A stretch of 64,000 bases of DNA, from positions 5,172 through 69,171 of the forward strand of contig CAZDFQ010000004.1 of assembly GCA_964505005.1 (NCBI GenBank), given 5' to 3'. The notes under the pieces are model-generated. The model was not told the origin of the DNA. It ran no database searches and saw only the letters and a list, made by a program, of their open reading frames with translations. Positions 6,931 to 56,459 of the stretch are shown here, piece by piece (position 1 is the stretch's first letter; each line of letters starts with the position of its first letter). The position numbers and the translations under genes are program-made. This DNA comes from an uncultured Candidatus Saccharibacteria bacterium. GTDB taxonomy: Bacteria; Patescibacteriota; Minisyncoccia; UBA6257; 2-01-FULL-56-20.

Positions 6931-6975
6931 GTCAAATAGCAAAAAGCAAATAGCAAATAACAGAAATAAAGACAA

Positions 6976-9117: not shown

Positions 9118-9127
9118 CAGCAATAGA

Positions 9128-10279: not shown

Positions 10280-10733
10280 ATCTCTAATCTCTAAATCCTA
10301 ATCTCTAAACAATCTCAAATGCTAAAAAACCAAAATGATAAACCATACGACTTAGAAAACAGAACTTTCGAATTTGCGCAAGGTGTTGTCAGTTATTTCA
10401 AAATACTTCCTAAAACTATTTCCAATGTAGAAATCGCAAAGCAGGGAATTCGCTCTGCCGCCTCGGTAGGCGCAAACTTTATTGAAGCTAATGAAGCATT
10501 AAGTAGGAAAGATTTTTTGATGAGAGTAAAAATCTGCAGAAAAGAAGTTAAAGAAACGATCTATTGGTTAAAATTATCAGAACCGAATGAGACGCAAAAG
10601 AATAAAACAGGATGAGCTTATCACTGAAGCGACTGAACTTATGAAAATATTCGGTGCAATTATTGAAAAATCGAAAAAATGATTTTGAGATTTGAAATTA
10701 TTTAGAAATTAGAGATTAGAATTTAGAGATTAT
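10280..10733. mobile_element. Family A inverted-repeat pair bracketing a four-helix-bundle gene (MITE-like cassette)
   Basis: Left arm 10280-10318 'taatctctaaatcctaatctctaaacaatctcaaat' runs straight into the ATG. Right arm 10679-10733 'gattttgagatttgaaattatttagaaattagagattagaatttagagatta' is its approximate reverse complement. Confidence 0.5.
10319..10615 (+). CDS. Four-helix-bundle protein (TIGR02436 / '23S rRNA intervening-sequence protein' family), frameshifted near its 3' end
   Basis: 'IRSAASVGANFIEANEALSRKDFLMRVKICRKEVKETIYWLKL' matches the family core. The expected C-terminal helix ('ELITEATELMKIFGAIIEKSKK*') continues in the +1 frame to 10680 after an A-run. Confidence 0.6.
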   Translation: MLKNQNDKPYDLENRTFEFAQGVVSYFKILPKTISNVEIAKQGIRSAASVGANFIEANEALSRKDFLMRVKICRKEVKETIYWLKLSEPNETQKNKTG

Positions 10734-10741
10734 TTTTATTC

Positions 10742-11251
10742 ATGCAGTTCCAAGTCCCCCAATTCATCGATATCGAGGATAAAATCGTCGGGCCGCTGAC
10801 GCTTAAACAATTTCTTTATTTAGCCGCGGCCGCTGGTTTAAGTTTTATGCTTTTTTTCGCCGTCCAAACCTGGCTTTGGTTCATCCTCTCCATTTTTTTG
10901 GTGGGGGCGGGCGTCGGCTTGGCATTCGTGAAAATAAACGGCCGGTCCCTGCTCCGCATTATCTTGTCGGCCATCCATTTTTACTGGCAGCCCCAAACTT
11001 ACGTCTGGCAGCCGGATAATCCCGATTTGCCGAAAACCGAATCAACCCTCCAAAAATTCAGCGAGGGACTGTCGCTCGAAAGTATTATTTCCGGCTTGTC
11101 ACTCCGTAATGTTTGGCAGAATGTCCAAACCGGCAGCAAAACTTTGGTTGGAGAAAGCCAGAGAGGATACCGCCGCGCCAAAGAGCGTTATGAAATAATC
11201 CAGAAAATCACTGGCGAGCGCCGGGCCGCCAGAAGAGTGGACTACCGGTAA
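10742..11251 (+). CDS. VirB3/PrgI-like small membrane protein (T4SS-like locus)
   Basis: N-terminus 'QFQVPQFIDIEDKIVGPLTLKQFLYL' followed by two TM helices, the VirB3-like pattern of Gram-positive T4SS. Sits immediately upstream of VirB4. Confidence 0.45.
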   Translation: MQFQVPQFIDIEDKIVGPLTLKQFLYLAAAAGLSFMLFFAVQTWLWFILSIFLVGAGVGLAFVKINGRSLLRIILSAIHFYWQPQTYVWQPDNPDLPKTESTLQKFSEGLSLESIISGLSLRNVWQNVQTGSKTLVGESQRGYRRAKERYEIIQKITGERRAARRVDYR

Positions 11252-11335
11252 CACATATCACAAAACACAAATCAAAGTGCAAAATGACAATGAAAAATGA
11301 TAAAATGAATTATTGGACATTTTGATTTTTGAGAT

Positions 11336-12034
11336 TTGAATTTTAAATTTATTATTATGCCCAAAGAGTTCGGCAATGCCCAAGATTTGGTGACCCTCGA
11401 AGAAATTCGTCAGGATGCCGTTATTTTAAAAGACGGCAGCTTGCACCAGCTGGTGATGGTTGGCGGTCTGAATTTTTCCCTCAAATCAGAGGCTGAACAG
11501 ACGATGATAACCCAGGCCTATCAGAATTTTCTGAACAGTTTGGATTTCCCTGTTCAAATCGTCATTCATTCAAGGAAAATAAACATTGACGATTATCTTG
11601 GCGTTTTAACGGAGCAGATAGCCAAAGAGCCGTCCGAGCTTCTCCAGGGCCAGATTGCCGAATACAAAGAATTCGTGGCTGGTTTTGTCCGGGAAAACCC
11701 CATAATGGCCAAGGTTTTCTTGGTGGTAGTTTCTTTTTCTCCTATTTTCTTTTCCGCTGGTAAACAGGCAGTTGCCAGCTTTCTTCCTTTTTTAAAAAAG
11801 AAAAGTAAGGAGGAAGAAAAAAAATCGCTCCAAGAAAAGGAGGCGGAACTTCAAAAAAATTTGGAGCAGCTTCGCCAGAGAGTGAACCAGGTAGTCAGCG
11901 GCTTGCAGGCCATCGACCTAGAGGCCACGGTATTGGGCGATGAAGAGTTGGTGGAGCTTTTTTACAATTTTTACAACCCCGGCACCATCGAAAAAGAGAA
12001 AATTGCTGCTGATGACCAGACAAAAAAATCCTAA
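11336..12034 (+). CDS. virB4: VirB4/TrbE-family conjugal-transfer ATPase, N-terminal fragment (gene split by repeat insertion)
   Basis: 'DAVILKDGSLHQLVMVGGLNFSLKSEAEQTMITQAYQNFLNSLDFPVQIVIHSRK' matches the VirB4 N-terminal motif. The stop codon lies inside the family A repeat arm. Confidence 0.55.
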   Translation: MNFKFIIMPKEFGNAQDLVTLEEIRQDAVILKDGSLHQLVMVGGLNFSLKSEAEQTMITQAYQNFLNSLDFPVQIVIHSRKINIDDYLGVLTEQIAKEPSELLQGQIAEYKEFVAGFVRENPIMAKVFLVVVSFSPIFFSAGKQAVASFLPFLKKKSKEEEKKSLQEKEAELQKNLEQLRQRVNQVVSGLQAIDLEATVLGDEELVELFYNFYNPGTIEKEKIAADDQTKKS

Positions 12035-12254
12035 ATCCTAATATCTAAATCCTCCAATTGGCAACGAGGAGAAAGTAAATGAGAATACATTTATTTTCGG
12101 CGAGCCCTGCCTGCCGGCAGGCAGGGAACCGATTGAGGAAGCGAAGCTTCATTAACAACCACAAAATTCAGATCTCAAAAATTTTCATTTTGGTCATTTA
12201 TAACATTTGGGCTTGTTTAGAGATTGGGGTTTAGAAATTAGATATTAACATAAG
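12035..12254. mobile_element. Family A MITE-like element with conserved ~120-bp core, inserted between the two VirB4 fragments
   Basis: Arms 'ctaaatcctaatatctaaatcc' and 'gtttagagattggggtttagaaattagatatta'. The core 'cctccaattggcaacgaggagaaagtaaatga...ttcattaacaa' is shared with the copy at 39833-40030. Confidence 0.55.
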
Positions 12255-13982
12255 ATGGCGGAAACAAATTTTCAAAATCTAAAAAAGGTTATTACGCCGG
12301 CTGGGATTCAGGTGGATTCCAACCATCTTAAGGTCGGCGATAAGTTCGTAAAAACGTTTTTCATTTTTTCTTATCCGCGCTATCTTTCCAGCGGCTGGTT
12401 CGATTCCCTAATTAATCTGCCTAATCTTTTTGACGCCGCCATTTTCATCAACCCCGTGGATACGGCTCTGGCGCTCAAAAATCTCCGAAAAAAGGCGGCC
12501 CAAATAGAATCGCAGATAAGCGACCAGCAGGAAAAAGGCCTGGTGCGCGACCCGATGCTGGAAACCGCTCTCCGCGATGTCGAACTGCTCCGCGACACCC
12601 TCCAGCAGGCCCAAGAGAAACTTTTCAGTGTCGGCGTCTATATAGCGATTTACGCTGATACGTTTGATGATTTGGCGCGACTGGAAAGCCAAATTGTTTC
12701 TTCGATGGAGGCCAAACTTGTTTACATCAAGCCAGCGCTTTTCCAACAGCTGGACGCTTTTTTGTCGGTAATGCCGCTCGGCCAGGATAAAATTTCCGTA
12801 ACCCAACCAATGAATTCAGCGCCGATATCTTCGTTTTTCCCGTTTGTCTCTGAAGATTTGACTTCTGACCGAGGGGTTCTTTACGGCATCAATCGTCATA
12901 ATAATAGTTTGGTGATTTTTGACCGGTTTTCTTTAGAAAATGCCAACCAAGTGGTTTTTGCCAAAGCCGGCGCTGGCAAGAGTTACGCCACCAAATTAGA
13001 GATAATCAGGTCTTTGATGATGGGCGTGGATGTGCTCGTCATTGACCCGGAAAATGAATACAAGCGGCTGGCCGAAAGCTTTGGCGGCAGTTTTTTCAAC
13101 ATTTCACTTTCTTCTCGCGAACACATCAATCCATTCGACATTCCGATTGTGCCGGAAAACGAAACAGCAGCTGATGTCCTGCGGTCGCACATCGTCACCC
13201 TGGCTGGCCTGGTCAAAATGATGCTCGGCAAGGTAACGCCGGAAGAAGACGCGATTCTTGACCGGGCTATCACCGAAACCTACGCCTCGCGAGAGATAAC
13301 GCCTAATGAAGATTTTTCCAAGGCCCAGCCGCCCCTGCTTGAAGATTTGGAAACGGTTTTGAAAAATCTCGAAGGGGGTCGCAGTTTGGCCGAACGGCTT
13401 TATAAATACACCAAAGGGAGTTTTGCCGGATTTGTGAACCAGCCGACCAATGTGGATGTGAATAATCGGCTAATTGTTTTTTCCATCCGCGACCTAGAAG
13501 ACGAGCTTCGACCGGTGGCGATGTACGTGATTCTCGGTTTCATCTGGAATCTGATTCGCTCCAAGATGAAAAAACGGATTATGATTGTTGACGAGGCCTG
13601 GTGGATGATGAAATACGAAGAAAGCGCTTCGTTTTTGTTCGGCTTGGCCAAACGTTGCCGCAAATACTATCTCGGGCTCTCGACTATCACCCAAGACGTG
13701 GAGGATTTTTTGCGTTCGCCTTACGGTCGGCCGATTATCACCAACTCTTCCTTGCAGCTCCTTTTACGGCAAGCACCGGCCACCATTGACTTGGTGGCCA
13801 AGGCTTTTGATTTGACCGAGGCGGAAAAAGATTATCTGCTGACCGCCGAGGTGGGCACCGGGCTTTTCTTTGCGGGCCGCCGGCATGTGGCGATTCAGAT
13901 AATCGCTTCCTACTTCGAAGACCAAATAATCACCACCAGCCCGCAGCAGTTGTTGGAAGAAAGAGCCGGAGAAGTCCGATAA
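12255..13982 (+). CDS. virB4: VirB4/TrbE-family conjugal-transfer ATPase, C-terminal ATPase fragment
   Basis: 'YPRYLSSGWFDSL', 'FLSVMPLG', Walker A 'AKAGAGKSY' and Walker B-like 'IMIVDEAWWMM'. The combined 232+575 aa equals a typical VirB4 length. Confidence 0.65.
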   Translation: MAETNFQNLKKVITPAGIQVDSNHLKVGDKFVKTFFIFSYPRYLSSGWFDSLINLPNLFDAAIFINPVDTALALKNLRKKAAQIESQISDQQEKGLVRDPMLETALRDVELLRDTLQQAQEKLFSVGVYIAIYADTFDDLARLESQIVSSMEAKLVYIKPALFQQLDAFLSVMPLGQDKISVTQPMNSAPISSFFPFVSEDLTSDRGVLYGINRHNNSLVIFDRFSLENANQVVFAKAGAGKSYATKLEIIRSLMMGVDVLVIDPENEYKRLAESFGGSFFNISLSSREHINPFDIPIVPENETAADVLRSHIVTLAGLVKMMLGKVTPEEDAILDRAITETYASREITPNEDFSKAQPPLLEDLETVLKNLEGGRSLAERLYKYTKGSFAGFVNQPTNVDVNNRLIVFSIRDLEDELRPVAMYVILGFIWNLIRSKMKKRIMIVDEAWWMMKYEESASFLFGLAKRCRKYYLGLSTITQDVEDFLRSPYGRPIITNSSLQLLLRQAPATIDLVAKAFDLTEAEKDYLLTAEVGTGLFFAGRRHVAIQIIASYFEDQIITTSPQQLLEERAGEVR

Positions 13983-14044
13983 TGATTTGGATGAATGCTT
14001 TCTAACGCCCTATTCGGATGCTATAATAGTTTTAGAAACTTTAA

Positions 14045-14758
14045 ATGGCTGACGTGGAGAAATTAAGCATTCTGGATCCGCTGGTTATTTTCGCGGCCAT
14101 CGCTGCTTTTATAGGAGATATTTCCTGGCTTATAGCAATTTTTGCTCTGGCCGCGCCTGTTATCGGGCTTCCCCTTGCTCTTTATATTTTGGTCGGGCGT
14201 TATGTGGCCGCAACAATTGTGGGTTTTTCGCTTTGGGCTAAAGCAAAAGGATGGTTAGCTAAAATAGTTTTGATATTGGCTGTGCTTATCCCTTTGCCCT
14301 TGCTTGTTCTTGGTATCATCTTAGTTGTCCTTCTCTCCAATCGCTTTATTAGGTTTTTGGCCGAACAGGCGGTCATTGCCGTTGTCGGCACGGCCACGGC
14401 CGGAGCCGGAGTTGTTGCCGGCGAGGCTGTGGCGGTTGGCGAAGTAGCGGCCGGCGCGGCAGAAATAGCGGCGGCCGGAGGAGAAATTACGGCTGGCGCC
14501 GAGGCGGCCGCCGAAGCCGGAATAACAGCGGAGCGCGCTGTGACTGCCGAAGAAACGGCCACAGCCGAGGCCGGAGTCAGGCCGCCGGAGGCGCCGGAAA
14601 AAGAAATAGCCCCAGAAGCTTTGGGTGAAGAACCAACGCCCTTTGAAAAGCTCCGGGAATTAACCGAAAAAATGCCCGAGGCGCCGGAGAAAAAAGAAAA
14701 AGAGGAAGAGGTTGAAATTGACGATGAAGCCAACGAGGTTAATTTGAAAGAAACATAA
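14045..14758 (+). CDS. Membrane protein with Ala/Glu-rich low-complexity C-terminal tail
   Basis: Four predicted TM helices, then 'AGAGVVAGEAVAVGEVAAGAAEIAAAGGE...' and an acidic tail. Confidence 0.45.
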   Translation: MADVEKLSILDPLVIFAAIAAFIGDISWLIAIFALAAPVIGLPLALYILVGRYVAATIVGFSLWAKAKGWLAKIVLILAVLIPLPLLVLGIILVVLLSNRFIRFLAEQAVIAVVGTATAGAGVVAGEAVAVGEVAAGAAEIAAAGGEITAGAEAAAEAGITAERAVTAEETATAEAGVRPPEAPEKEIAPEALGEEPTPFEKLRELTEKMPEAPEKKEKEEEVEIDDEANEVNLKET

Positions 14759-14836
14759 TGCTAATAATGCGGAATAGCATGCGAATGATGCGGAAGATTT
14801 TCGCGGTATTCGCATAATTAATTCGAGAATTCGCAT
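14750..14836. repeat. Family B palindromic octamer array (mirrored 'ATGCGAAT ... ATTCGCAT' units) in promoter region
   Basis: 'aatgcggaatagcatgcgaatgatgcggaagattttcgcggtattcgcataattaattcgagaattcgcattatg'. Ends with the conserved 'ttcgcattatg' terminal. Confidence 0.55.
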
Positions 14837-19690: not shown

Positions 19691-21049
19691 ATGGAAAAAA
19701 ATCTTGAGCGCCTCTGGCAATCGGTTCTTAGCGAAATCGAGTCTCAGGTTTCGCGGGCTAATTTTGTTACTTGGCTAAAAAATAGTCGAATAGTTGACGA
19801 GCAGGACGGCGCCCTTTTTGTAATTTTGCCGAACAATTTTGCCAAAGAATGGGTAGAAAATAAATATCAGAAAAACCTTCTTGGTATTTGCCGGCAGTTT
19901 GATGATTCTATTAAAAAATTGGAATTCGTGGTTTCCGCCCAGAAAGCCGAGTTAGTAATTTCCAGAAAAAATCCGGTGGTTGTCGGCTTTGAAAACAAAA
20001 TGAATCTCGAGTTCCAAACCGACCAAGAGACCAGCCTTAATCCTCGTTATACTCTCAACTCTTTTGTTGTCGGTTCGTCGAACGAACTGGCGTTCAGCGC
20101 GGCCAATGCTGTTGTCCAAGGCGTCGGCACCAAATACAATCCGTTTTTTGTTTACGGCGGCGTGGGCCTTGGCAAAACCCATTTAATTCAAGCTATTGGC
20201 AACGAAATCAAGGCTCTTTACCGCGGCAAGGTAAGGCCCAAGTATGTGCCCTCAGAAAGATTCACCAGCGATGTTGTCTGGGCCATCCGGAATAAACGAA
20301 TGGAGGATATAAAAAAGAAATATCGCGACGTCGATGTCCTTATAATTGATGACATTCAATTCATCGGCGGCAAAGAAAAAACCGAAGAAGAATTTTTTCA
20401 TACTTTTAATGCGCTTTATGAAAACAACAAGCAGATTATTATTTCCTCGGACCGGCCGCCGCAGTCAATTCCGACCCTGGAAGAGCGGCTGCGGTCGCGA
20501 TTTGAGGGGGGCTTGATAGCTGATATTGTTTATCCGGAGTATGAAATGAGGGTGGCGATAATTAAAAGCAAGCTCCAAGAGAACAGTCGCGAATTAAAGG
20601 AGGAAATTATTGATTTAATCGCCCGCAAAGTAAAAAAGAATATCCGGGAACTGGAGGGGGTGCTGAATAAAATTCTTTTTTATCATGAAATGAAAGGTGT
20701 TCCGATTACCGAGAAGGCGGCTGAAGAAATAATTGAAAAATCCATTCAAAATTTCAGCCGGCGCGTTAGTGATTCCCAAATTATCAAGTCAGTGGCTGAA
20801 TTTTATAATATTTCGGTTGATGATTTAGTGGGGCAGGCTAGAAAAAAAGAAATTGTCGAGCCGCGCCAAATCGCCATGTATTTACTTCGGGATATGTTGG
20901 ATATGTCTTATCCTTACATCGGGGAAAAACTGGGGAAGGACCACACCACTGCCATTCACGCGGTAAGAAAAATAAACCAGGAAATCAACAGGAATTCTTC
21001 GTTAAACCAGAAGATTATTTCAATCAGAGAATTAATTTACGGCAACTAA
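19691..21049 (+). CDS. dnaA: Chromosomal replication initiator DnaA
   Basis: 'NPFFVYGGVGLGKTHL' Walker A, 'LIIDDIQF', and the C-terminal 'MYLLRDMLDMSYPYIGEKLGKDHTTAIHA' DnaA-box-binding domain. Confidence 0.95.
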   Translation: MEKNLERLWQSVLSEIESQVSRANFVTWLKNSRIVDEQDGALFVILPNNFAKEWVENKYQKNLLGICRQFDDSIKKLEFVVSAQKAELVISRKNPVVVGFENKMNLEFQTDQETSLNPRYTLNSFVVGSSNELAFSAANAVVQGVGTKYNPFFVYGGVGLGKTHLIQAIGNEIKALYRGKVRPKYVPSERFTSDVVWAIRNKRMEDIKKKYRDVDVLIIDDIQFIGGKEKTEEEFFHTFNALYENNKQIIISSDRPPQSIPTLEERLRSRFEGGLIADIVYPEYEMRVAIIKSKLQENSRELKEEIIDLIARKVKKNIRELEGVLNKILFYHEMKGVPITEKAAEEIIEKSIQNFSRRVSDSQIIKSVAEFYNISVDDLVGQARKKEIVEPRQIAMYLLRDMLDMSYPYIGEKLGKDHTTAIHAVRKINQEINRNSSLNQKIISIRELIYGN

Positions 21050-21172: not shown

Positions 21173-22285
21173 ATGAAGTTGGTTATTATAAAGAATAATT
21201 TGAAAGAGGGAATTTCGGCTGTTAGTCGGGCGGCTGGAGAAAATCTAAATTTGCCCATTCTTAAAAACATTCTTTTAGAAACCGAAAGCGGCAAGCTTAA
21301 ATTGGCCGCCACCAACCTCGAATTAGCCGTCAGCTTTCATGCCTCCGGGAAGATAATCGAAAACGGCAGACTAACCGTCCCTCTTAATGTTTTCTCGGAA
21401 TTAATTAATAATATTTCGAGCGAGCGGCTCAACTTGGAAAGCCGGAAAAACATTCTGGAAATAAAAACCGATAATTATCAAGCTAGCCTTCGCGGCGCAG
21501 CGGCCGACGAATTCCCCTTAATTCCTAAAATAAAAAACACCAAAGAGTGCCTAGAATTTGATTCGGCGGTGCTTAAAGAGGCCTTAGGCCAAGTCATCGT
21601 CGCCTCCCAAATTTCCGAACTAAGACCAGAACTAAACAGTATTTTTTTTAATTTTTCGCTGGACAGCTTGAAAATTGTGGCCACCGACAGCTTTCGTTTG
21701 GCGGAAAAAACCTTGGCGGCTAACCAATTCCAGTCAAATCACCAAGAACCGTTTTCTTTGCTGCTACCCCTCCGCAGCGGCCAAGAACTGTTAAGAGTTT
21801 TTGACAACGAAGGAAAAGTCAAAATCTACCACGACGAAAACCAGATTTTATTCGAAACCGACCGACTCGAATTTTTTTCTCGGCTGTCAGAAGGAACCTT
21901 CCCTGATTATCAAGCCGTGGTCCCACAGAAATTCAATGCCGAGGCAAACATTTCCAAGGAGGAGCTTCTAAGCAGCCTTCGGTTGGCCGGCATATTTAGC
22001 AGCCGAACCAGCGAAGTAAAAGTTAAAATTTTAGAAAACAAAAAGGCCTTAGAAATTTCTTCTTCAGACCAAACAGTCGGCGAAAATAGTTATTTGTTGC
22101 CAGCCAGGCTTCAGGGCAGCGCCAAGGAAATCGGTTTCAATTGGCGCTATTTAGCTGATGGCTTGAAAGCGCTCAAAACCGACGAGGCCTTTCTGGCTCT
22201 CAACGACGATAATAAGCCCTCGCTTATCAAATCACCCAACGACGCTTCTTATTTTTATCTTTTAATGCCGGTTCTGCGGGTTTAA
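21173..22285 (+). CDS. dnaN: DNA polymerase III beta sliding clamp
   Basis: 370 aa immediately downstream of dnaA. 'LKLAATNLELAV' clamp N-terminal pattern and three-domain length. Confidence 0.9.
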   Translation: MKLVIIKNNLKEGISAVSRAAGENLNLPILKNILLETESGKLKLAATNLELAVSFHASGKIIENGRLTVPLNVFSELINNISSERLNLESRKNILEIKTDNYQASLRGAAADEFPLIPKIKNTKECLEFDSAVLKEALGQVIVASQISELRPELNSIFFNFSLDSLKIVATDSFRLAEKTLAANQFQSNHQEPFSLLLPLRSGQELLRVFDNEGKVKIYHDENQILFETDRLEFFSRLSEGTFPDYQAVVPQKFNAEANISKEELLSSLRLAGIFSSRTSEVKVKILENKKALEISSSDQTVGENSYLLPARLQGSAKEIGFNWRYLADGLKALKTDEAFLALNDDNKPSLIKSPNDASYFYLLMPVLRV

Positions 22286-49293: not shown

Positions 49294-49370
49294 GTCCCCG
49301 TGGTGTAACTGGATAAGACGTCGGCCTCCGAAGCCGAAGATTGGCCGTTCAAGTCGGCCCGGGGACACCA
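49294..49370 (+). tRNA. tRNA-Arg (anticodon CCG), CCA encoded
   Basis: Acceptor 'GTCCCCG/CGGGGAC', anticodon arm 'TCGGC-CTCCGAA-GCCGA' (U33, CCG, A37), T-arm 'GGCCG-TTCAAGT-CGGCC', A20 and discriminator A, 3' 'ACCA'. Confidence 0.8.
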
Positions 49371-49412: not shown

Positions 49413-49868
49413 ATGGATTGCGTTTTCTGTAAAATTGTAAAAGGAGAAGTACCCGCCCATAAAATCTGGGAAGACGAAAAACATCTTGCGTTTCTCTCTA
49501 TCTTTCCAAACACTGAAGGGGTTTCCGTCGTAATTACAAAGGAACATTTTCCGTCATATGTTTTTGATTTACCGGAAGAAGTTTTAATCGGTTTAGTTAA
49601 GGCCGCGAAACAGACGGCAAAATTGCTTGACGCGAGATTGGAAGATGTCGGCCGCACGGGTATGATTTTTGAGGGGTTTGGCGTTGATCACGCCCATGTA
49701 AAGCTTTTCCCGATGCACGGCACGAAAATGTCAGAATGGAAACCGATTAAATCGAATGTTGATAAATATTTTGAGAAATACGAAGGGTATATTTCTTCTC
49801 ATGATTACAAACGTGCTGATGATGAAAAGTTAGCTGAACTTGCTAAAAAATTACGAAATCAGGAATAA
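49413..49868 (+). CDS. HIT-family nucleotide hydrolase
   Basis: 'FCKIVKGEVPAHKIWEDEKHLAFLSIFP' and the histidine triad 'DHAHVKLFP'. Start trimmed to 49413 so it does not overlap the tRNA. Confidence 0.75.
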   Translation: MDCVFCKIVKGEVPAHKIWEDEKHLAFLSIFPNTEGVSVVITKEHFPSYVFDLPEEVLIGLVKAAKQTAKLLDARLEDVGRTGMIFEGFGVDHAHVKLFPMHGTKMSEWKPIKSNVDKYFEKYEGYISSHDYKRADDEKLAELAKKLRNQE

Positions 49869-49974
49869 ACATAAACAAAAGTAATAGGGACAATATCCTA
49901 TGCTGAATATGGAAGGCCTGACTGTATAACAGCAGTCAGGCCTTGATATATTTTTTACGGCAGGTGTTCAGATG

Positions 49975-50616
49975 TTATTTCTCTCCTACAAACACCCAGT
50001 GTGCAGAGAGGTAGGGAGTTCCCACATCAATCAGGCCGCCGTGCTTCAAGTGGTAAACCTCAATAGCCTTGAAGCATTGCATGAGTGAGCGGGTCTCCTC
50101 TTCGTCCACGAAGTGATGGGGTACGCCAGCTTCAATCCCCTCGTTGGGGACGAAGGTGTGTGGTTCTATCTCTTCGCCTCTCCGGTATTCAGAGCTTTCA
50201 CGGGAGATGAATGTGCACATGACAATTCCTCCCGGGGACAACGTGCGGCGCATCTCCGCGATGCAAGCACAGATGCCGCTCACAGTGTTGTGAGTAATGA
50301 CTCCTCGACAGATGCACGCATCGAAGAAGTCATCCGGATAAGGAATCACTGTCATGTCGCTCATTACGAGTTCGGCTTGAAGACCCTCTTGTTCAAGCCA
50401 ATTTCTCGTAACTTGTTCGCCTCTCTTGGAGATGTCGGTCCCGTACATCATAAATCCCAGTTTTGCGAGGTAGACGATGTGACGTCCAGCCCCGAATCCG
50501 AGATCGAGCACCCGCTTGGCTCCGCGAAATCGGAGAATTGACACGACTTTCACGACTTCTTCTGCGGGATCTTTCAGGCAGAATTTCGCGTCTTTGTAAA
50601 GATCGTCCCAGTTCAT
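49975..50616 (-). CDS. Class I SAM-dependent methyltransferase (first gene, by coordinate, of the GC-rich island)
   Basis: 'VLDLGFGAGRHIVYLAKLG' SAM-binding motif I. Start chosen at 50616 with SD 'gggagg'; the longer ORF would overlap the upstream aaRS gene. Confidence 0.65.
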   Translation of the reverse strand: MNWDDLYKDAKFCLKDPAEEVVKVVSILRFRGAKRVLDLGFGAGRHIVYLAKLGFMMYGTDISKRGEQVTRNWLEQEGLQAELVMSDMTVIPYPDDFFDACICRGVITHNTVSGICACIAEMRRTLSPGGIVMCTFISRESSEYRRGEEIEPHTFVPNEGIEAGVPHHFVDEEETRSLMQCFKAIEVYHLKHGGLIDVGTPYLSAHWVFVGEK

Positions 50617-50698
50617 GTTAGCCGACCTCCCATGAGATGGAGCGGATGACCGGGAAGCACTCCGCCTCCCGGTCATCCTATTATTCCTTACTCGCAAG

Positions 50699-52006
50699 TC
50701 ACGGCGTGAGCCGATTGACTCCTCGATAGAGGTATGTCACCTCGCGCACGGATTTGGCACCCAGCATCACCATGAGCATGCGGGTGAGGCCGAAGCCGTA
50801 GCCGCCGTGAGGCGGGCAGCCGAAACGGAAGCAGTCCAGATAGTACTGGATAGGCTCAAGCGAGAGCCCTTTCTCCCTGGCCTGCGCCACAAGAACGTCG
50901 TAGCGATGTTCACGCTGCGCCCCCGTCGTCACCTCAAGTCCTTTCCAGAGAAGGTCGAAGCTTTTGGTGAGGTGGGGCTTGCCTTCCGGACGCATGTGGT
51001 AGAACGGCCGCACCACCAATGGGTACTCGGTGACGAAGACGAACTCGTGTCCGGTCTTCTCTTGGAAGTGCCGGCACAGAAGCCGCTCGCCTTCGGGGTC
51101 GAGGTCGCCCTTTTCGCCCCGCTCGACGCGATGTTCCATCTGCTCGAGGATTTCGTACGCCTCGGCCATGGTTACCCGCGGGAACGGAAGCTCGGGGACT
51201 ACGATCTCTGTGCCGAACGTTGCCTTGATCTCCCCGCCGTACTCGGCTTTCACCGCTTGAAGTACGTGGCGGAGCCAGCGTTCCTCAAGTTGCATGACGT
51301 CCTCGTGGGAATCAATCCATGAGATTTCAACGTCAACACTGGTGAATTCCGTGTCGTGGCGGGAAGTGAAGGACGGATTGGCCCGGAAGACCGGCCCGAT
51401 CTCGAAGACGCGATCGAAGCCCGCCGCCATCGCCATTTGCTTGTAGAATTGCGGCGATTGGGCAAGGTACGCCTTGCGGTCGAAGTACTTCACTTCGAAA
51501 AGCTCCGCACCCGATTCGCTCGCGCTGCCCATGAACTTCGGAGAATGGATCTCAATAAATTCCTCCGCTGTCCAGAACGAACGCATGGCGTGTTCAGCCG
51601 CCGTCTGGATTTTGAAGATGAGCAGGTTCTGCGGGTTGCGCAGATCCAGAAATCTCCAGTCCAGACGTGTTTCGAGACCGGTGTTTTCGTCGAGAGGCAG
51701 AGGTGTGTCCGCCTTGCTCACGACCGCAACCGACTCAGCGACGATCTCTAGTCCGCCCAGCTTCACCACCGGATTGAGGATAACTCTGCCGGTGATTTCC
51801 ACTGCGCTTTCCGGCGTGAGGCCGGCGATGGCTGCGGTGAGTTCAGCGTTGATCGACTTCTCGTGCACTACCTGCGCGCTGCCGGTGTGGTCACGGACGA
51901 TGAGAAACTGCATCTTCTTTTGGTCGCGCAGCCTCTCAACCCATCCGCAGATCCGAACGGCCTCGCCGTTCTTGGTTCCGAGTTGCTTGATCAGTATTCG
52001 TTGCAT
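50699..52006 (-). CDS. aspS: Aspartyl-tRNA synthetase, archaeal/eukaryotic-type (class IIb, ~435 aa)
   Basis: Co-linear with archaeal AspRS: 'DTPLPLDENTGLETRLDWRFLDLR', 'QSPQFYKQ', 'GPVFRA', 'GGYGFGLTRML', ending '...NRLTP'. The conserved 'FPRD' is replaced by 'YRGV'. Confidence 0.7.
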   Translation of the reverse strand: MQRILIKQLGTKNGEAVRICGWVERLRDQKKMQFLIVRDHTGSAQVVHEKSINAELTAAIAGLTPESAVEITGRVILNPVVKLGGLEIVAESVAVVSKADTPLPLDENTGLETRLDWRFLDLRNPQNLLIFKIQTAAEHAMRSFWTAEEFIEIHSPKFMGSASESGAELFEVKYFDRKAYLAQSPQFYKQMAMAAGFDRVFEIGPVFRANPSFTSRHDTEFTSVDVEISWIDSHEDVMQLEERWLRHVLQAVKAEYGGEIKATFGTEIVVPELPFPRVTMAEAYEILEQMEHRVERGEKGDLDPEGERLLCRHFQEKTGHEFVFVTEYPLVVRPFYHMRPEGKPHLTKSFDLLWKGLEVTTGAQREHRYDVLVAQAREKGLSLEPIQYYLDCFRFGCPPHGGYGFGLTRMLMVMLGAKSVREVTYLYRGVNRLTP

Positions 52007-52064
52007 GACTGTTTTCTCCTTTCAGTGTGCCTTGCCGATATTGGCTTAGCGTATGTGGTGGTGT

Positions 52065-53387
52065 TCATGGATTAATCCTCCTCCCGAACGCTCGGTGGAA
52101 AGGGATCGTGTCCCGCACATGCGGAATCTGCAGGAGCCAACGGATGAACCGTTCCAGCCCCAGACCGAAACCTCCGTGCGGCACACAGCCGTACTGACGA
52201 AGCTCCCGCAACCATTCGTAGCGGGCGTCGCCGGCTTTGCCTTTTTCTGCCAGACGCTCATCGAGCATCGGTAGTGTACTGATTTTCTCGGCAATACCGA
52301 GAAGCTCGCCATAACCCCGGCTTGCGATTAAATCCGCCGTCTTGGTGCGACGTGTATCCGACGGATCAATTACATACGGGAAGGGCTCGATGGAACGCGG
52401 GATGCCGACAACCCAGAATGGGATGTCGCCGAATCGCTGGCTTAGCCTAGCTTCTTCATCAGAACCCAAGCTTTTGCCGAATTCGATGTCAAAGCCCTGC
52501 GCTTTGAGCCACTCCACGGCCTCCGTGTAGTCAATACGCGGAAACGGCGTTTTCAGACCGTCGCCGCACATTTCAGTGCCGATGACGTCAGCGAGCTCGC
52601 GTCCTTCACGGATGCTTTGCTCGTTCACGTCCCGAATGAACCGCTCGACCACGGAGACCATGTCTTCCAGATCCACAAAAGCCAGCTCAGCCTTGATATG
52701 CCAGTACTCCATGAGATGTCTCTTGGAGCGGCTTTCCTCGGCACGAAAACTGGGGCCGATGTTGTAGATCTTTTCGAAAGCGTGCACCGCGGCTTCGAGG
52801 TAGAACCCGACGCACTGCGTGAGATACACGTTTTGGCCGTGAACCTTGAGCGCAATCGGTGTTCGGTCGTCGTAGAGCGGTGTCGGCGTGAGCACGGGAG
52901 CGTGAACCTCGGTGAATCCATTTTCGTGGAACCACTGATGTACGGCTCGTGTGAGGATGTGGCGAAACCTCAGGATGGCGGCAATTTTCTCGTTGCGGAG
53001 ATAAAAGTACCGCTTGTCCAGAAGTTGCTCTTGCATCCTCGGATCCTGAATATCAATGTTCGCCCGCGGGTACGGGGAGACATTGATCTCGCTCGTGCCG
53101 ACGATTTCGATTTCCCGCACACGAAGCTCTCTTGGCGGATTAGGCCGTCCGGTTTCTGCAATGATTCCGGTAGCCTTGACCGCCGTTTCTTGGCTCATGC
53201 GACGTGCGAGTTCGAAAGCGGCTTTGTTGCCATCTTCGATCACGCACTGCACCGTGCCGGTGGAATCAGCGATGTCCAGAAAGACAACGCGGCTGTGGCC
53301 GCGGCGGGTTTTCACCCATCCGTAGAATTCGACCCTGCTACTGTTTGGAATGTGTTTGAGCAAGTCAACTGCATATACCCTTTTCAT
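52065..53387 (-). CDS. asnS: Asparaginyl-tRNA synthetase (class IIb)
   Basis: 'IGPSFRAEESRSKRHLMEYWHIKAELAF' motif 2 and 'RYEWLRELRQYGCVPHGGFGLGLERFIRWLLQIPHVRDTIPFHR' are co-linear with the E. coli AsnS C-terminus. The 'FPR' motif is altered to 'FHR'. Confidence 0.75.
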   Translation of the reverse strand: MKRVYAVDLLKHIPNSSRVEFYGWVKTRRGHSRVVFLDIADSTGTVQCVIEDGNKAAFELARRMSQETAVKATGIIAETGRPNPPRELRVREIEIVGTSEINVSPYPRANIDIQDPRMQEQLLDKRYFYLRNEKIAAILRFRHILTRAVHQWFHENGFTEVHAPVLTPTPLYDDRTPIALKVHGQNVYLTQCVGFYLEAAVHAFEKIYNIGPSFRAEESRSKRHLMEYWHIKAELAFVDLEDMVSVVERFIRDVNEQSIREGRELADVIGTEMCGDGLKTPFPRIDYTEAVEWLKAQGFDIEFGKSLGSDEEARLSQRFGDIPFWVVGIPRSIEPFPYVIDPSDTRRTKTADLIASRGYGELLGIAEKISTLPMLDERLAEKGKAGDARYEWLRELRQYGCVPHGGFGLGLERFIRWLLQIPHVRDTIPFHRAFGRRINP

Positions 53388-53854
53388 TTTTTCTTTCCTC
53401 CTTGTCGTATCCTTTGGAACGCGGCAGAGAATGTTGCGGGTGAGTTCGGTATAACGCCAGTGTAATATTTGTATACGCTATTCCAGTAACGATCTTGTAA
53501 CGCATCGTTTAAATACACACTGTTTTCTCTATTTAGTTGTTAAAGAACTCTCAATAACCTCCCGGAGTAATTCCAGAGAGGAATATAAATTTTGACATTT
53601 ATGGATAGTTTTGTAAAGAAGTAATATAAGGGTAATCTAAGCCAATTGGTACAGCTCTACTATCATGGAAAGTATGTACCAATTCAACCAAATACCATCA
53701 GAAGCAAAGGTCGAGAAATACTTCCGGCGGATTCTGTTCGGGAAGAATATGTTTTGTCCTCTGTTTTAATTCGGAAAATATCACGATAGAATTGACTCTG
53801 TCTGTAATTAGTTTTCATTTCGGCCGAGAAAATATCTCGAAAAGAAAAAGGATT

Positions 53855-53905
53855 TAAATAACAAAACAAAAAGGCGGAGAGGCCTTCTTGGTGTATCTCT
53901 CCGCC
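53855..53905 (-). terminator. Rho-independent terminator of the RiPP-like operon
   Basis: 'ggcggagag-gccttcttggtgtat-ctctccgcc', followed on the minus strand by 'tttttgttttgtt'. Confidence 0.6.
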
Positions 53906-53925: not shown

Positions 53926-54972
53926 TTACCGTCTTCTGATGCTTAGTTGCCTCATTATTCTCGCTTCGCGACAGGTTCGGGTTGCAGGCGTCCGCATATC
54001 TCCAGCCTCAATATGATTGAGACCTAGACATGGTCGGCAGTATTTCAGCAGCTCGCAACTGCCGCACTTCAGGCCTTGGAGCGTTACCGAGCGCATATCA
54101 AGGAGTTGTGGCGAGTTCTCCCAGATATCCGCAAAAGGACGTTCTGTTACATTCCCGCATCGAAGGGGCATTTGGACGCAGGGGTACACGTCCCCGTACG
54201 GGGAAATGTAGCAGGACATGTGCCCGGCGCCGCAGGGGATAGTGTTGAATGAACCGGTGTATGCTTCCTCGCGTTCCATTTCCGTGCCTGTTTCCTCTTT
54301 ATTGAAATTGAAGAGAGGATCAGAGAGGAGGTGGGGGAGGTACTCGTCATCCACACAGAACTGAAGCGGCCGGTCGCTGCCGTCGCTTTTGGGTGCGAGG
54401 CGATAGTCCGTCTGGAATCGCGCTCCAATTTCTTTCGCGAAGGCGTGGATCTCGCGCCAATCCTCTTTGTTTTGTTCCATGATGACGGAGGATATTTTCA
54501 CTCGCGCTTTGCGCTCTCGGAGCATTTTCGCCGCCCGGATGGATTTCTGGAGCGAACCCAGGCCCCGGGTGATTGCATCGTGAAGTTTGGGATCCAAGCT
54601 GTAGATGCTAATGGCAACAAGCTCCGGATACAAGGCGGCGATGCGGTCTGCGCTTCCTTCGGTGAGCAGCGTGCCGTTGGTCAGGAGTCGGAGAGCGAAG
54701 TTCAGTTCGCGCGCGTACTCCGCTATCTCGAACAAGTCTTTGCGCGCCATAATCTCGCCCCCGCTAAGGGTGAGATAAAGCGTTCCGACTGCGGCTAACT
54801 GCTCTAGTGTTCGCTTTGCTTGAGTAGTAGCGAGCTCCGGTCGGGCCTGCGCCGTAATGTAGCAGTGAACGCAGTCCAAATTGCAACGGTAGGTGAGGTC
54901 GAAGTGGGCTACCAGAGGAATTTTGCTCCTCAGCGCTTTCTCGCGCAGGGTCTCGAAAAGGTTAAGGTTCAT
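53926..54972 (-). CDS. Radical SAM/SPASM-domain peptide-modifying enzyme (PqqE/MftC-like maturase)
   Basis: 'FDLTYRCNLDCVHCY' CX3CX2C cluster and a C-terminal SPASM 'CGAGHMSCYISPYGDVYPC...CGSCELLKYCRPCLG'. Start is an ATGA overlap with the upstream PqqD-like gene. Confidence 0.8.
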   Translation of the reverse strand: MNLNLFETLREKALRSKIPLVAHFDLTYRCNLDCVHCYITAQARPELATTQAKRTLEQLAAVGTLYLTLSGGEIMARKDLFEIAEYARELNFALRLLTNGTLLTEGSADRIAALYPELVAISIYSLDPKLHDAITRGLGSLQKSIRAAKMLRERKARVKISSVIMEQNKEDWREIHAFAKEIGARFQTDYRLAPKSDGSDRPLQFCVDDEYLPHLLSDPLFNFNKEETGTEMEREEAYTGSFNTIPCGAGHMSCYISPYGDVYPCVQMPLRCGNVTERPFADIWENSPQLLDMRSVTLQGLKCGSCELLKYCRPCLGLNHIEAGDMRTPATRTCREARIMRQLSIRRR

Positions 54973-55277
54973 TCCGGAGCTCCTTTCATGAGCAGCAGAT
55001 TCTTCTCTGTCATCTGGTTGATGAACTCGACGCAATCCCTTTCCAGTTCCTCTCGGCCGACATCAAATTCGGCCAGCAGCGCGTCAGTGATTTCCCGCAT
55101 GCTTTTCGTGCCATCAATCATCTCCCAGATGCGGGTGGCAACCGGGTTCAGGAGATGGAAAGCGGCCTCCCGCAAATCCACCGCCACTGCTTGACCGGCG
55201 ATTACCCGCCAAGCGATAATTTCTCTATTCTTCGTCGGAATGCCATCCGAGACGTCTACTGCTCGTTCGTCCCTCAT
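54969..55277 (-). CDS. PqqD-family RiPP recognition element (RRE) protein
   Basis: 'AFHLLNPVATRIWEMIDGTKSMREITDALLAEFDVGREELERDCVEFINQMTEKNLL' matches the PqqD family. SD 'ggagacagcataATG'. Confidence 0.75.
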   Translation of the reverse strand: MRDERAVDVSDGIPTKNREIIAWRVIAGQAVAVDLREAAFHLLNPVATRIWEMIDGTKSMREITDALLAEFDVGREELERDCVEFINQMTEKNLLLMKGAPE

Positions 55278-55362
55278 TATGCTGTCTCCTCTGCTGGTTG
55301 TTTTAGGTTTTTTCAGGTTTCTATGTCTAATCTATCAAAATTAAACCTCGACATCAATTTAT

Positions 55363-56217
55363 TTATTTCTTCCCACTTACGGCGTAGGAAGTATAAATGT
55401 CTCCGAAGCGCGGGAGGAAGTTCTTCCGACTTAATTCCGGGCTACTGAAAAATGTTTGATAATTGATATTGCGGAATTTAAGCCGCCTAAGATAGCCGAC
55501 TATTATATTACTAGCAGCAAATTCAATCTTATATTTCTGGGCTAATTTTAGGCTAGTGGAATTTTTTTCATAGACCAGGCCGCTCAAAACCAATCGGCCG
55601 CTTCTTTTTAAAACTCTTTGAGATTCTTTAACCCCCGCGTGGATATTCGGTTCGTCAAGGCCATGCCAAGAACTTACGCTGTCAATTGATTGGTCGGCAA
55701 ACGGCATGCATCTAGCATCAGCGCAGATAATGCTGACTTTAGAATATTTACCGAGCCGCTGTAATAAGATTTTAAGCCCGACGGCGCTGGCATAATCAAT
55801 TTCCAAAGCAATGACTTTACCACGACTTTTGTCGAGTATGTTTCTCAAAAATCTGCCGGTTCCGCTGGCCCAATCCAGATGAATCCCGCTTTCTGAAAGA
55901 ATAAGCTGGCGGGTCATCCACTTTATTTCCTTCTTTAGATAAGCAAGCTCTCGCGGGTTGAAGTTTTTAAGCCATTTGTTTTTTAATTCCTGTTTTGTGA
56001 TAAAGTTTAAAATTTTGCGGAGGCGCGCCTTATTCTTGTCTTTACAACTGAGGGAACGAAAGCAAGCAATGTCATCGATAACCGCGAATTTAGCGGCACA
56101 ACCTTGGCAAATCAGGATGCCTTGTTTAATTCTTGTCTCCGAAGATTCGTCTTCTTCCAAATGCAACGGCGATTTACACTTAGGACATGTGAGAATGGAA
56201 AGCAGGTCGCGGTTCAT
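55363..56217 (-). CDS. Methyltransferase with N-terminal Trm112-like zinc ribbon fused to a class I SAM MTase domain
   Basis: 'LSILTCPKCKSPLHL...LICQGCAAKFAV' zinc ribbon, then 'LDWASGTGRF' SAM motif I. Confidence 0.7.
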   Translation of the reverse strand: MNRDLLSILTCPKCKSPLHLEEDESSETRIKQGILICQGCAAKFAVIDDIACFRSLSCKDKNKARLRKILNFITKQELKNKWLKNFNPRELAYLKKEIKWMTRQLILSESGIHLDWASGTGRFLRNILDKSRGKVIALEIDYASAVGLKILLQRLGKYSKVSIICADARCMPFADQSIDSVSSWHGLDEPNIHAGVKESQRVLKRSGRLVLSGLVYEKNSTSLKLAQKYKIEFAASNIIVGYLRRLKFRNINYQTFFSSPELSRKNFLPRFGDIYTSYAVSGKK

Positions 56218-56243
56218 AATCGAAAAATTTATAGGTATGATTG

Positions 56244-56289
56244 TTATGCCGTACTAAAATAGAGAGAACGCCCAGAGCACCGACGACTC
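56244..56289 (-). terminator. Intra-operon attenuator/leaky-terminator hairpin between the candidate precursor and the modification genes
   Basis: Minus-strand 'agaacgctcagagtcgtcggtgctctgggcgttct' followed by 'ctctatttt'. Confidence 0.4.
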
Positions 56290-56312
56290 TGAGCGTTCTT
56301 TGCGCGACAACC

Positions 56313-56459
56313 CTATCCCTTCTTCGGAGAGAAGGGCTGGCCGCAGAACTTGACACTGGTCGTGGGACAGTCCCCCATCCGTTCCTGAGGCTCTGCCCCC
56401 GAGACCGTCCGTGGCGGCTCGTACTGCTTCTTGGTTGCCGCGGCTTCGCCTTTCTTCAT
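56313..56459 (-). CDS. Candidate RiPP precursor peptide (48 aa)
   Basis: Manual translation gives 'MKKGEAAATKKQYEPPRTVSGAEPQERMGDCPTTSVKFCGQPFSPKKG'. Consensus SD 'GGAGGTG' lies 6 nt upstream of the ATG. It is the first gene of the operon, followed by the attenuator hairpin; under 60 aa so absent from the ORF track. Confidence 0.45.
   Translation of the reverse strand: MKKGEAAATKKQYEPPRTVSGAEPQERMGDCPTTSVKFCGQPFSPKKG

Follow-up and report, generated by a model that had tools for sequence, protein, structure and literature searches.

A horizontally spreading pair of AsnRS-like and AspRS genes in candidate phyla radiation bacteria: an apparently uncatalogued synthetase clade and a tentative link to synthetase-targeting antibiotics

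Two adjacent genes for class IIb aminoacyl-tRNA synthetases (aaRSs) are found at 50699-53387 of a 64,000 nt contig stretch from an uncultured Candidatus Saccharibacteria bacterium, here termed the window. The first gene encodes a protein resembling asparaginyl-tRNA synthetase (AsnRS) and is termed AsnL; the second encodes an archaeal-type aspartyl-tRNA synthetase (AspRS) and is termed AspL. By Pfam, each protein combines an OB-fold anticodon domain with the class II D/K/N core. Overall, the locus is viewed as a cassette of aaRS paralogues that may be linked to an aaRS-targeting antibiotic and that holds a member of an apparently uncatalogued AsnRS-like clade. Loci used for comparison carry labels of the type L003 and span 10 kb on either side of their anchors. 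The pair and the features around it are as follows.

49294 to 49370, plus strand: tRNA-Arg(CCG), which borders the module
49413 to 49868, plus strand: homologue of the MccH clade of HIT phosphoramidases, convergent with the synthetase unit; E-GFGVD-H-A-H-V-K-LF, which fits ExxxxxHxHxKxx
49913 to 49944, unstranded: hairpin with a 13-bp stem and T-runs, lying between the synthetase/methyltransferase unit and the HIT gene convergent with it
49975 to 50616, minus strand: MT240, a class I S-adenosylmethionine (SAM) methyltransferase; the open reading frame extends to 50697, with a likely start at Met28 (50616)
50699 to 52006, minus strand: AspL, 435 amino acid archaeal-type AspRS, 58 nt downstream of AsnL
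52065 to 53387, minus strand: AsnL, 440 amino acid AsnRS-like class IIb protein of the 'QC / K / AEK' clade, with OB-fold anticodon domain and motifs 1-3
53390 to 53453, minus strand: remnant of the 3′ end of a ∼92 amino acid open reading frame, 77% identical over 66 nt to L012
53589 to 53617, minus strand: promoter-like site TTTACA-17-CAAAAT, TG-extended, ∼200 nt upstream of AsnL; a consensus match only
53867 to 53890, minus strand: terminator-like hairpin after the radical-SAM gene, closing the upstream operon
53926 to 56459, minus strand: operon resembling those for ribosomally synthesized and post-translationally modified peptides (RiPPs), with a 48 amino acid open reading frame at 56313-56459 (MKKGEAAATKKQYEPPRTVSGAEPQERMGDCPTTSVKFCGQPFSPKKG), a Trm112-fused methyltransferase, PqqD, a radical-SAM/SPASM protein and its own terminators

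This arrangement agrees with a preliminary description of the same DNA in most of its anatomy. The two co-oriented reading frames reported there are both real and have exact coordinates, and the C-terminal strings LYRGV in AspL (...TYLYRGVNRLTP) and IPFHR in AsnL (...TIPFHRAFGRRINP) are present. The small SAM methyltransferase is indeed adjacent and co-oriented, directly downstream of AspL at 49975-50697 on the minus strand, and the RiPP-like neighbour, with its PqqD, radical-SAM/SPASM, Trm112-methyltransferase and 48 amino acid reading frame, is found upstream of the pair. The start of MT240 is likely to be at 50616 because alignments with homologues begin at Met28. Orthologues of MT240 are found at the same position in L013 (82% identity) and L016 (68%), and its G + C content is similar to that of the pair. 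The hairpin at 49913-49944 looks like a bidirectional terminator.

The pair behaves as a unit. One pattern, MEYWHIKA, is nearly invariant in the AsnL family. Genomes of 185,579 species, one for each, were scanned with this and other patterns, and only about 50 loci emerged, almost all of them in metagenome-assembled genomes (MAGs) of Patescibacteria; the distribution is thus sporadic. AspL is found within 6 kb of AsnL in 43 of 43 informative loci and is directly downstream and co-oriented in 40 of these. The AsnL proteins are 80-87% identical across MAGs labelled Uhr-, Jorgensen-, Gracili- and Saccharibacteria and Paceibacterota, and the flanks are unrelated. The G + C content of the pair exceeds that of the flanks in 34 of 35 loci, with a mean difference of 0.08 and a maximum of 0.20. 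In the window the values are 0.57 over the pair and ∼0.48 in the flanks, and among 27 window genes AspL has the highest G + C at third codon positions (GC3, 0.74) and the HIT gene the lowest (0.36). A transposase, integrase or recombinase gene lies nearby in three loci (L006, L061, L050). The AsnL-AspL pair is a horizontally spreading accessory cassette of bacteria of the candidate phyla radiation (CPR).

The vehicle was sought in several collections. No AsnL-type match is present in the phage sequences of IMG/VR, the plasmids of PLSDB contain only canonical asnS at 30-35% identity, and PADLOC returned nothing relevant among anti-phage defence families. The tRNA-Arg(CCG) gene, which is also found in L032 (7855-7926), was considered as an integration site and set aside: no att-like direct repeats were found around it in the window, and the coincidence is limited to these two loci. 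A dedicated tRNA partner was likewise rejected, as the nearby tRNAs vary by locus and tRNA-Asn is found in 3 of 46, which is not significant. Rfam models applied to the window gave the tRNA-Arg only, with no RNA leader or T-box. An RNA element upstream of AsnL was also discarded as a candidate; the conserved ∼300 nt found there in other loci codes for a small protein and contains no obvious RNA.

The preliminary description offered three readings of the pair, the first being that these are the housekeeping AspRS and AsnRS of the organism, obtained by horizontal transfer. In a fuller form, acquired asnS-aspS genes would have replaced, or be replacing, a native route made up of a non-discriminating AspRS and the amidotransferase GatCAB, with any hydrolases nearby being unrelated residents. 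The very sporadic occurrence of the pair and its foreign composition speak against this, as does the presence of a second AspRS in eight genomes with the pair. One of the eight is complete (CP129473.1) and carries, 300 nt from the pair, a standalone archaeal-type AspRS (514 bits) that is 56% identical to AspL; seven more loci have another AspRS of the YRG, FPRD or bacterial type within 10 kb. The cassette is also present in the complete or nearly complete genomes JAHFJN010000001 (1.07 Mb) and JACKFU010000001 (0.70 Mb), whereas OZ246394 (1.6 Mb) has AsnL alone. In L023, gatC and gatA (580 bits against a cut-off of 481) are found 4 kb from the pair. Of the additional aspS, asnS and gatCAB genes that the preliminary description proposed to look for, related genomes show aspS, and L023 shows gatCA. 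The 64 kb of the window contain no further aaRS gene and no gatCAB, which favours the housekeeping reading. That reading is considered unlikely, although for the present genome, represented by one contig, it keeps some probability.

AspL itself conforms to the AspRS models, a further point in favour of a housekeeping role. It scores above both curated cut-offs for the archaeal type (NF003483, 498 against 353 bits; TIGR00458, 401 against 368). In alignment with the AspRS of Thermococcus kodakarensis (372 bits) the segments QSPQFYK, VDVE and GAQREHR correspond. The Asp pocket is canonical, with QSPQFYK, D/E after motif 2 and GAQREHR, and motif 3 reads GLTR. Both proteins had been said to keep FRAE in motif 2 together with the motif 3 arginine. 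The statement on FRAE is wrong for AspL, which has FRAN in motif 2, as found in 39 of 40 partner proteins.

A difference of possible functional consequence lies in the L1 loop. AspL has VKLGG, with no proline, and most of the 40 partners read [VI]K[LMF]GG; QAPGG is found in 87 of 120 sequences of the standalone CPR AspRS. Elsewhere the loop reads KAPGG in the non-discriminating AspRS2 of Thermus thermophilus (1N9W) and KAKLG in the T. kodakarensis AspRS. The L1-loop proline, which we take from mutational work on the T. kodakarensis enzyme to mark non-discriminating AspRS, is thus a signature that AspL fails to show, in distinction to T. thermophilus AspRS2. Because this proline has been lost, AspL probably acts on tRNA(Asp) only. 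This single loop position is a weak indication that AspL charges tRNA(Asp) alone and that the standalone CPR AspRS serves both tRNAs.

The same position bears on an arrangement modelled on Thermus and Deinococcus, whereby an archaeal-type second AspRS would make Asp-tRNA(Asn) for GatCAB and an AsnRS would recharge free asparagine. Deinococcus radiodurans and T. thermophilus are described as having a housekeeping AspRS, an archaeal-type second AspRS, an AsnRS and GatCAB (PMC4206432). The gatC-gatA genes close to the pair in L023 and the match of AspL to the 'aspartate--tRNA(Asn) ligase' model fit such an arrangement. However, AspL does not have the L1-loop proline of T. thermophilus AspRS2 and of the standalone CPR enzyme, and because of this loss it is the standalone enzyme, not AspL, that looks non-discriminating. 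The arrangement also leaves unexplained the hydrolase neighbourhood and the rebuilt AsnL pocket, both described below, and is regarded as quite improbable.

The C-terminal strings of the two proteins had been singled out as changes to a normally invariant FPR motif. They prove uninformative. With the standalone AspRS of a complete Paceibacterota genome as query, the best 120 relatives, all at least 70% identical and annotated as aspartate--tRNA(Asn) ligase, come from Sungbacteria, Minisyncoccia and Paceibacteria, among others. The C-terminal [LVI]YRGV is present in 120 of these 120, and YRG thus characterizes the Patescibacteria AspRS clade as a whole. Sharing of the FPR substitutions among orthologues of the lineage, which the preliminary description had named as evidence for ordinary enzymes, is accordingly found for AspRS. 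In AsnL the corresponding residue, position 431 (the histidine of IPFHR), is variable, with histidine in 90, proline in 11 and phenylalanine in 8 of 110 subclade sequences, and the wider AsnL-type clade retains FPR. The standalone AspRS with YRG, QAPGG and FRAE is an abundant Patescibacteria enzyme and is far commoner than the cassette. AspL differs from this housekeeping clade by the changes QAPGG to VKLGG and FRAE to FRAN. By neighbour joining, AsnL and AspL each form a monophyletic group, the branching orders of the two largely agree, and the sister group of AspL is the standalone CPR AspRS of the YRG type. AspL is proposed to have arisen by specialization from the archaeal-type AspRS of the lineage itself.

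AsnL departs more deeply from its canonical relatives. The AsnRS identity assigned to 52065-53387 is borne out only in that the closest structural-sequence match is canonical AsnRS (279 bits), with the same length and domain order, but the protein falls below both curated AsnRS cut-offs (NF003037, 320.2 against 414 bits; TIGR00457, 303.4 against 342.6), as does the orthologue in L003. Alignment was made to the AsnRS of Pyrococcus horikoshii (1X54) and T. thermophilus (5ZG8). Every canonical Asn-contacting residue is replaced, while the ATP, Mg and anticodon-domain residues are kept. The QSxQ motif has become Q191-C192-V193-G194, the first glutamate of E-x-E (Glu225 of T. thermophilus) is Lys232, and GGSQR is replaced by G-I365-A366-E367-K368. 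In structures of AsnRS from 1998 and 2006, the glutamine of QSxQ, Glu225 and Arg368 (T. thermophilus numbering) reportedly contact asparagine. These canonical residues are invariant in the archaeal, bacterial and eukaryotic AsnRS sequences aligned.

The AsnL signature, in turn, is essentially invariant in about 110 of 110 close homologues. The same homologues also keep R215, E217 and H224 of motif 2, the Mg ligands D352 and E361, and R413 of motif 3. The OB-fold residues G23, W24, R29, F36, D41, Q47, E67 and E87 are the same in AsnL, 1X54 and 5ZG8 and are strictly conserved. When 1.84 billion cluster representatives were searched exhaustively with HMMER, 31 of the 137 complete top hits have all four AsnL-type residues (down to ∼33% identity), 79 have all four canonical AsnRS residues and 14 are of the AspRS type. 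No hybrid between the AsnL-type and canonical signatures is present among the 137. The signature therefore defines a deep, all-or-none AsnRS-like clade. Its members include CPR proteins filed as 'hypothetical', proteins of an archaeal MAG and of Gram-negative MAGs, and Penicillium proteins; several AsnL proteins bear the PGAP label asparagine--tRNA ligase, a point in favour of a housekeeping function. No description of the family was found in the literature: AARS Online has one AsnRS family, and the reviews of aaRS paralogues do not include this one. No paper on AsnRS or GatCAB in CPR bacteria was found either. AsnL fails the models for asparagine synthetase A (117-126 bits against cut-offs of 309-368).

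AsnL-type genes are also found solo, in ordinary chromosomal contexts and in other phyla, as a housekeeping role would predict. In L050 a tRNA-Asn gene is 1.3 kb away and an aminotransferase gene adjoins, in L062 the gene is amid other synthetase genes, and L063 is a further case. In non-CPR genomes, solo genes adjoin those for NUDIX (and MazG) hydrolases (L050, 11889-12422; L063, 3147-4258). A 642 amino acid protein of Penicillium hordei, P0280 (L060, 10001-12040), displays the full AsnL-type signature, QCAG, HIKAE and GVAEKS, and has an N-terminal extension of ∼200 amino acids; its gene is beside those for an ATP-grasp enzyme and transporters of the major facilitator superfamily (MFS). A HIT protein beside the Penicillium gene has only a 'faint' Pfam match and no motif, and was not used.

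Two interpretations of the pocket can be set against each other. In the first, AsnL is a true AsnRS. It is favoured because the catalytic and tRNA-binding residues are intact and because solo genes are found in ordinary settings; intact catalytic and anticodon-domain residues would also suit a housekeeping enzyme. The pair of residues that recognizes the amide appears to be charge-swapped, with Glu changed to Lys232 and Gln-Arg to Glu367-Lys368, and most likely AsnL still charges tRNA(Asn) with asparagine. The proposed clamp would have its acid moved from 232 to 367 and its base from 368 to 232/368. It is an evenly balanced proposition that AsnL recognizes asparagine in a second way, structurally different from the known one, and represents an uncatalogued type of AsnRS. 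In the second interpretation the chemistry differs. It is favoured because the glutamine that binds the alpha-amino group is lost and a strictly conserved cysteine is gained, and because of the extra copies in fungi and the enlarged module in L059. In its most explicit form, AsnL-type proteins would be AsnRS-derived, non-translational enzymes with MccB-like chemistry on free asparagine (Asn-AMP to aminosuccinimide to an N-adenylated product), with AspL as the insensitive target and HIT, S51 or S66 enzymes as antidote. This form is very unlikely. If it were true, tRNA synthetases would here form a self-contained module for growth control or toxin immunity, one that makes or handles an AspRS inhibitor of the aspartamide-adenylate type inside the cell.

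The neighbours of the pair give the main clue to function. All open reading frames of the loci were clustered to find recurrent families. A HIT protein is found near the pair in 21 loci, the window included, a Peptidase_S51 protein in ∼13 and a Peptidase_S66 protein in 11; the S51 and S66 genes share the slot right after AspL and are mutually exclusive. In 39 of 43 loci the pair has a gene of one of these three families no more than 3.5 kb away. Each of these families is known from microcin C (McC). Processed McC is an aspartamide-adenylate that inhibits AspRS, and MccH is a HIT-family detoxifier (PMC7157772). MccG, of the S51 family, confers proven McC resistance (PMC9239234), and MccF, of the S66 family, likewise detoxifies processed McC. 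The MccH clade is marked by ExxxxxHxHxKxx, with lysine in place of the third histidine, and a Parcubacteria homologue of MccH is active and protected E. coli (PMC7157772).

The HIT protein of the window fits the MccH motif, reading EGFGVDHAHVKLF. The motif is present in 20 of the 21 HIT neighbours and the classic HxHxH in none. The S66 neighbour matches structures of the MccF family with 127-270 bits, compared with 24-53 bits for LdcA. In the S51 neighbours the serine and histidine are conserved; the third residue of an MccG-type triad is ambiguous in the alignment, and it was neither assigned nor used. Chance does not account for three non-homologous families of McC hydrolases taking turns so close to the pair (39 of 43 loci, up to 3.5 kb away) when the flanks are otherwise unrelated, and this weighs further against the pair being plain housekeeping genes among unrelated residents. 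The composition of the HIT, S51 and S66 genes, which is unlike that of the pair, points the other way, towards that explanation. The hydrolases were probably not co-transferred with the pair, because their composition differs from it and because MccH-type HIT genes are very common; instead, the pair repeatedly lands beside them. The HIT gene, with its low GC3 and wide spread, may have a core role or be mobile in its own right. The ThiF protein of L014 was considered as an MccB and rejected, as it is Rv1355c/TcdA-like and gives no MccB match. It belongs to a trio consisting of a Glu/Leu/Phe/Val dehydrogenase, a PaaK-like adenylate-forming enzyme and the Rv1355c-like ThiF (L014, 5332-9136; also L017), which is beside the pair in three loci.

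Hydrolases of this kind could also act on products of the synthetases themselves. AsnL, AspL or both would then give off an aspartyl- or asparaginyl-adenylate as a dead-end side product, for instance through formation of a succinimide from Asn-AMP, and the HIT, S51 or S66 partner would clear it, with no antibiotic involved. The repeated, tight proximity of adenylate-forming enzymes to cleavers of Asp-nucleotide conjugates is consistent with such damage control, and the near-ubiquity and high conservation of MccH-type HIT proteins in CPR bacteria are what a core function would lead one to expect. Yet solo AsnL-type genes do without such partners, and the HIT family extends far more widely than the pair and is for this reason independent of it. 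Little probability is given to this explanation, whose chemistry is hypothetical.

The third reading in the preliminary description, aminoacyl-tRNA-dependent modification of peptides, would make the synthetases part of the adjacent RiPP-like cluster, to which they would supply aminoacyl-tRNA. The pair does stand next to the PqqD, radical-SAM/SPASM, methyltransferase and 48 amino acid reading frame, and radical-SAM genes are also near the pair in L003, L030 and L031. However, the terminator after the radical-SAM gene and the promoter-like site before AsnL indicate that the pair is a separate transcription unit. The RiPP genes are missing from ∼39 of 43 loci, with a radical-SAM gene near the pair in only 4 of ∼43, and the radical-SAM neighbours are mutually just 23-24% identical. 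No aminoacyl-tRNA user of the PEARL, Fem or cyclodipeptide-synthase-like kind is present. The best NCBIfam matches of the radical-SAM/SPASM protein, AhbD (162 bits) and mycofactocin maturase (154 bits), are below cut-off. The units are separate and their adjacency is not conserved, and a link between the synthetases and the RiPP cluster is scarcely credible.

The second of the three readings, extra copies tied to an aaRS-targeting product such as microcin C, is the one favoured here. It draws on the conserved presence of MccH-type HIT, S51 and MccF-like S66 genes nearby; the adjacent RiPP cluster, which had been seen as a possible link, is not one. The cassette is hypothesized to provide bypass of, or resistance to, aspartyl-adenylate mimics in concert with the neighbouring hydrolases, a tentative proposal that stands somewhat short of an even chance. 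In a CPR cell with a single non-discriminating AspRS and GatCAB, a block of AspRS would stop formation of both Asp-tRNA and Asn-tRNA. The cassette would give a second, 'direct' route to Asp-tRNA(Asp) and Asn-tRNA(Asn), as judged by the predicted specificities of both enzymes for tRNA and amino acid. AspL, if insensitive to aspartamide-adenylate, which is pure conjecture, would replace the blocked AspRS for tRNA(Asp), and AsnL would supply Asn-tRNA(Asn) while the GatCAB route is blocked. A discriminating AspRS alone would leave Asn-tRNA unrestored, and this would account for AspL always being paired with an AsnRS-like gene. The HIT, S51 or S66 hydrolases would destroy the aspartamide-adenylate, the presumed selective agent, so that target bypass and toxin destruction together allow translation to continue. 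The cassette would accumulate in small islands devoted to coping with aspartyl-adenylate mimics.

Several points weigh against this proposal. The Asp pocket of AspL is canonical, and its insensitivity is consequently conjectural. The assignment of discriminating and non-discriminating types is a weak one, drawn from a single loop position. If AsnL is an ordinary AsnRS, the full rebuilding of its pocket is unexplained. The HIT, S51 and S66 genes are slightly below the flanks in G + C content, unlike the pair, and three cassette loci (L003, L006, L052) have no such hydrolase nearby. MccH-type HIT proteins are very widespread, being 78-89% conserved across CPR classes and in a Pacearchaeota MAG. 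They may have a core role unrelated to antibiotics, in which case the adjacency would reflect island formation and not joint function. No producer of the McC type and no mccB was found near the loci.

If the bypass proposal is correct, the cassette would be the first defence by target replacement against peptide-nucleotide antibiotics of the microcin C type, and ultra-small CPR bacteria would be exposed to pressure from aspartyl-adenylate mimics. The AsnL-type clade would be of interest in either case as a large, unrecognized branch of class IIb found in CPR bacteria, archaeal MAGs, Gram-negative bacteria and Penicillium. It is either an enzyme type whose substrate is new or a second way to read asparagine; the latter would matter for the design of inhibitors and for how AsnRS descended from AspRS.

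Other families recur beside the pair, namely two methyltransferase families, a 126 amino acid protein, and the two listed here.

L010, L015, L017, L026, L032, L036, L039-L041, L043, L047, and L059 at 13835-14779: Amidohydro_2-family protein
L003 at 9745-10023, and L010, L012-L015, L027, L030, L042, L051, L055, L056: ∼92 amino acid open reading frame

The Amidohydro_2 protein has no NCBIfam match, is directly beside the pair in 11-12 loci and shares its raised G + C content. The ∼92 amino acid reading frame (SSSPTAAY, RWLxVLRRDY; no Pfam match) overlaps the start of AsnL in 12 loci and has the base composition of the pair; in the window it is lost save for a 66 nt remnant. Single loci display further features. 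An enlarged module in L059 comprises an extra AspRS-like gene, an MccH-type HIT gene, a HAD hydrolase, a methyltransferase, AsnL, AspL, an iron-containing alcohol dehydrogenase (Fe-ADH) and an amidohydrolase. In the same locus (11848-13833), a 661 amino acid protein adjoining the Fe-ADH fuses a glutamyl-tRNA-reductase-like N-domain, Shikimate_DH and a class IIb core with no anticodon domain; it could be an aminoacyl-adenylate or aminoacyl-tRNA reductase. L039 (8200-9009) encodes, directly upstream of AsnL, a 269 amino acid AspRS-like core with no anticodon domain, well below the cut-offs for AspRS and asparagine synthetase A. A 95 nt tRNA-like gene with an unassignable anticodon call is found ∼1.1 kb upstream of AsnL in L035 (8785-8879).

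Some of these neighbours suggest a producer, that is, a biosynthetic module. AsnL would make an Asx-derived adenylate or nucleotide, or feed Asx-tRNA into secondary metabolism, AspL would be the self-resistant target, and the hydrolases and methyltransferases would serve for self-immunity or tailoring. All three Asn-contacting positions are rebuilt with the ATP site kept, methyltransferases recur beside the pair, the L059 module adds a fusion of a glutamyl-tRNA-reductase-like protein with class IIb, Fe-ADH, a HAD hydrolase and a methyltransferase, and the Penicillium gene is beside an ATP-grasp enzyme and MFS transporters. There is also a precedent in AbmK of albomycin, an aaRS both biosynthetic and protective (PMC8323819). 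On the other hand, no exporter, precursor or scaffold enzyme recurs consistently in the CPR loci, and the minimal conserved set consists of the pair and one hydrolase only. Solo AsnL-type genes in plain chromosomal contexts and the strict conservation of the anticodon-binding residues of the OB-fold also fit poorly with a biosynthetic role, which is held to be distinctly unlikely.

The remainder of the window is an ordinary CPR-type chromosome, with dnaA/dnaN, a penicillin-binding protein (PBP), ruvB, uvrB, pyrG, fpg, ClpB-like and PolX genes. At 4636-13982 a gene for a TraG-like P-loop ATPase comes after three large open reading frames (764, 713 and 406 amino acids) that have no Pfam match. 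The origin region (dnaA, 19691-21049; dnaN, 21173-22285) is near, and these genes may form a block for a secretion- or conjugation-like process.

The hypothesized bypass has parallels in known systems. Immunity by target replacement with an aaRS is known for the seryl-tRNA synthetase AbmK (albomycin) and for the leucyl-tRNA synthetase borne on pAgK84 (agrocin 84) (PMC8323819). As in those cases, the CPR cassette is mobile and is grouped with putative immunity functions, and in the related genomes that have a second AspRS it adds an extra synthetase to a probable housekeeping copy. It differs in that two synthetases are found together, no biosynthetic cluster is attached and resistance is predicted only. 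The described mechanisms of McC resistance are MccE, MccF, MccH and MccG, with no AspRS- or AsnRS-based immunity listed (PMC9239234, PMC8323819); the defences described so far are toxin-modifying, toxin-cleaving or efflux only. The neighbours of the pair fall into the three families of MccH (HIT), MccF (S66) and MccG (S51), but they are standalone in CPR genomes, outside mcc operons, and their activity is predicted.

Thermus and Deinococcus resemble the cassette genomes in having an amidotransferase and an AsnRS-like enzyme together with a second AspRS, of archaeal type (PMC4206432). In the CPR cassette, by contrast, AspL has no loop proline, the genes are joined as one mobile unit, and they are found beside hydrolases of adenylate mimics. 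AsnL shares motifs 1-3, the Mg/ATP ligands and the OB-fold residues with canonical AsnRS (1X54, 5ZG8) and departs from it by replacement of the second glutamine of QSxQ, the glutamate of E-x-E and the arginine of SQR. Asparagine synthetase A and archaeal AS-AR are paralogues of the AspRS/AsnRS core in which use of the pocket is altered and the tRNA-binding domain is absent (PMC9437257). AsnL differs from these in retaining a conserved anticodon-binding domain and in scoring below the cut-offs for asparagine synthetase A.

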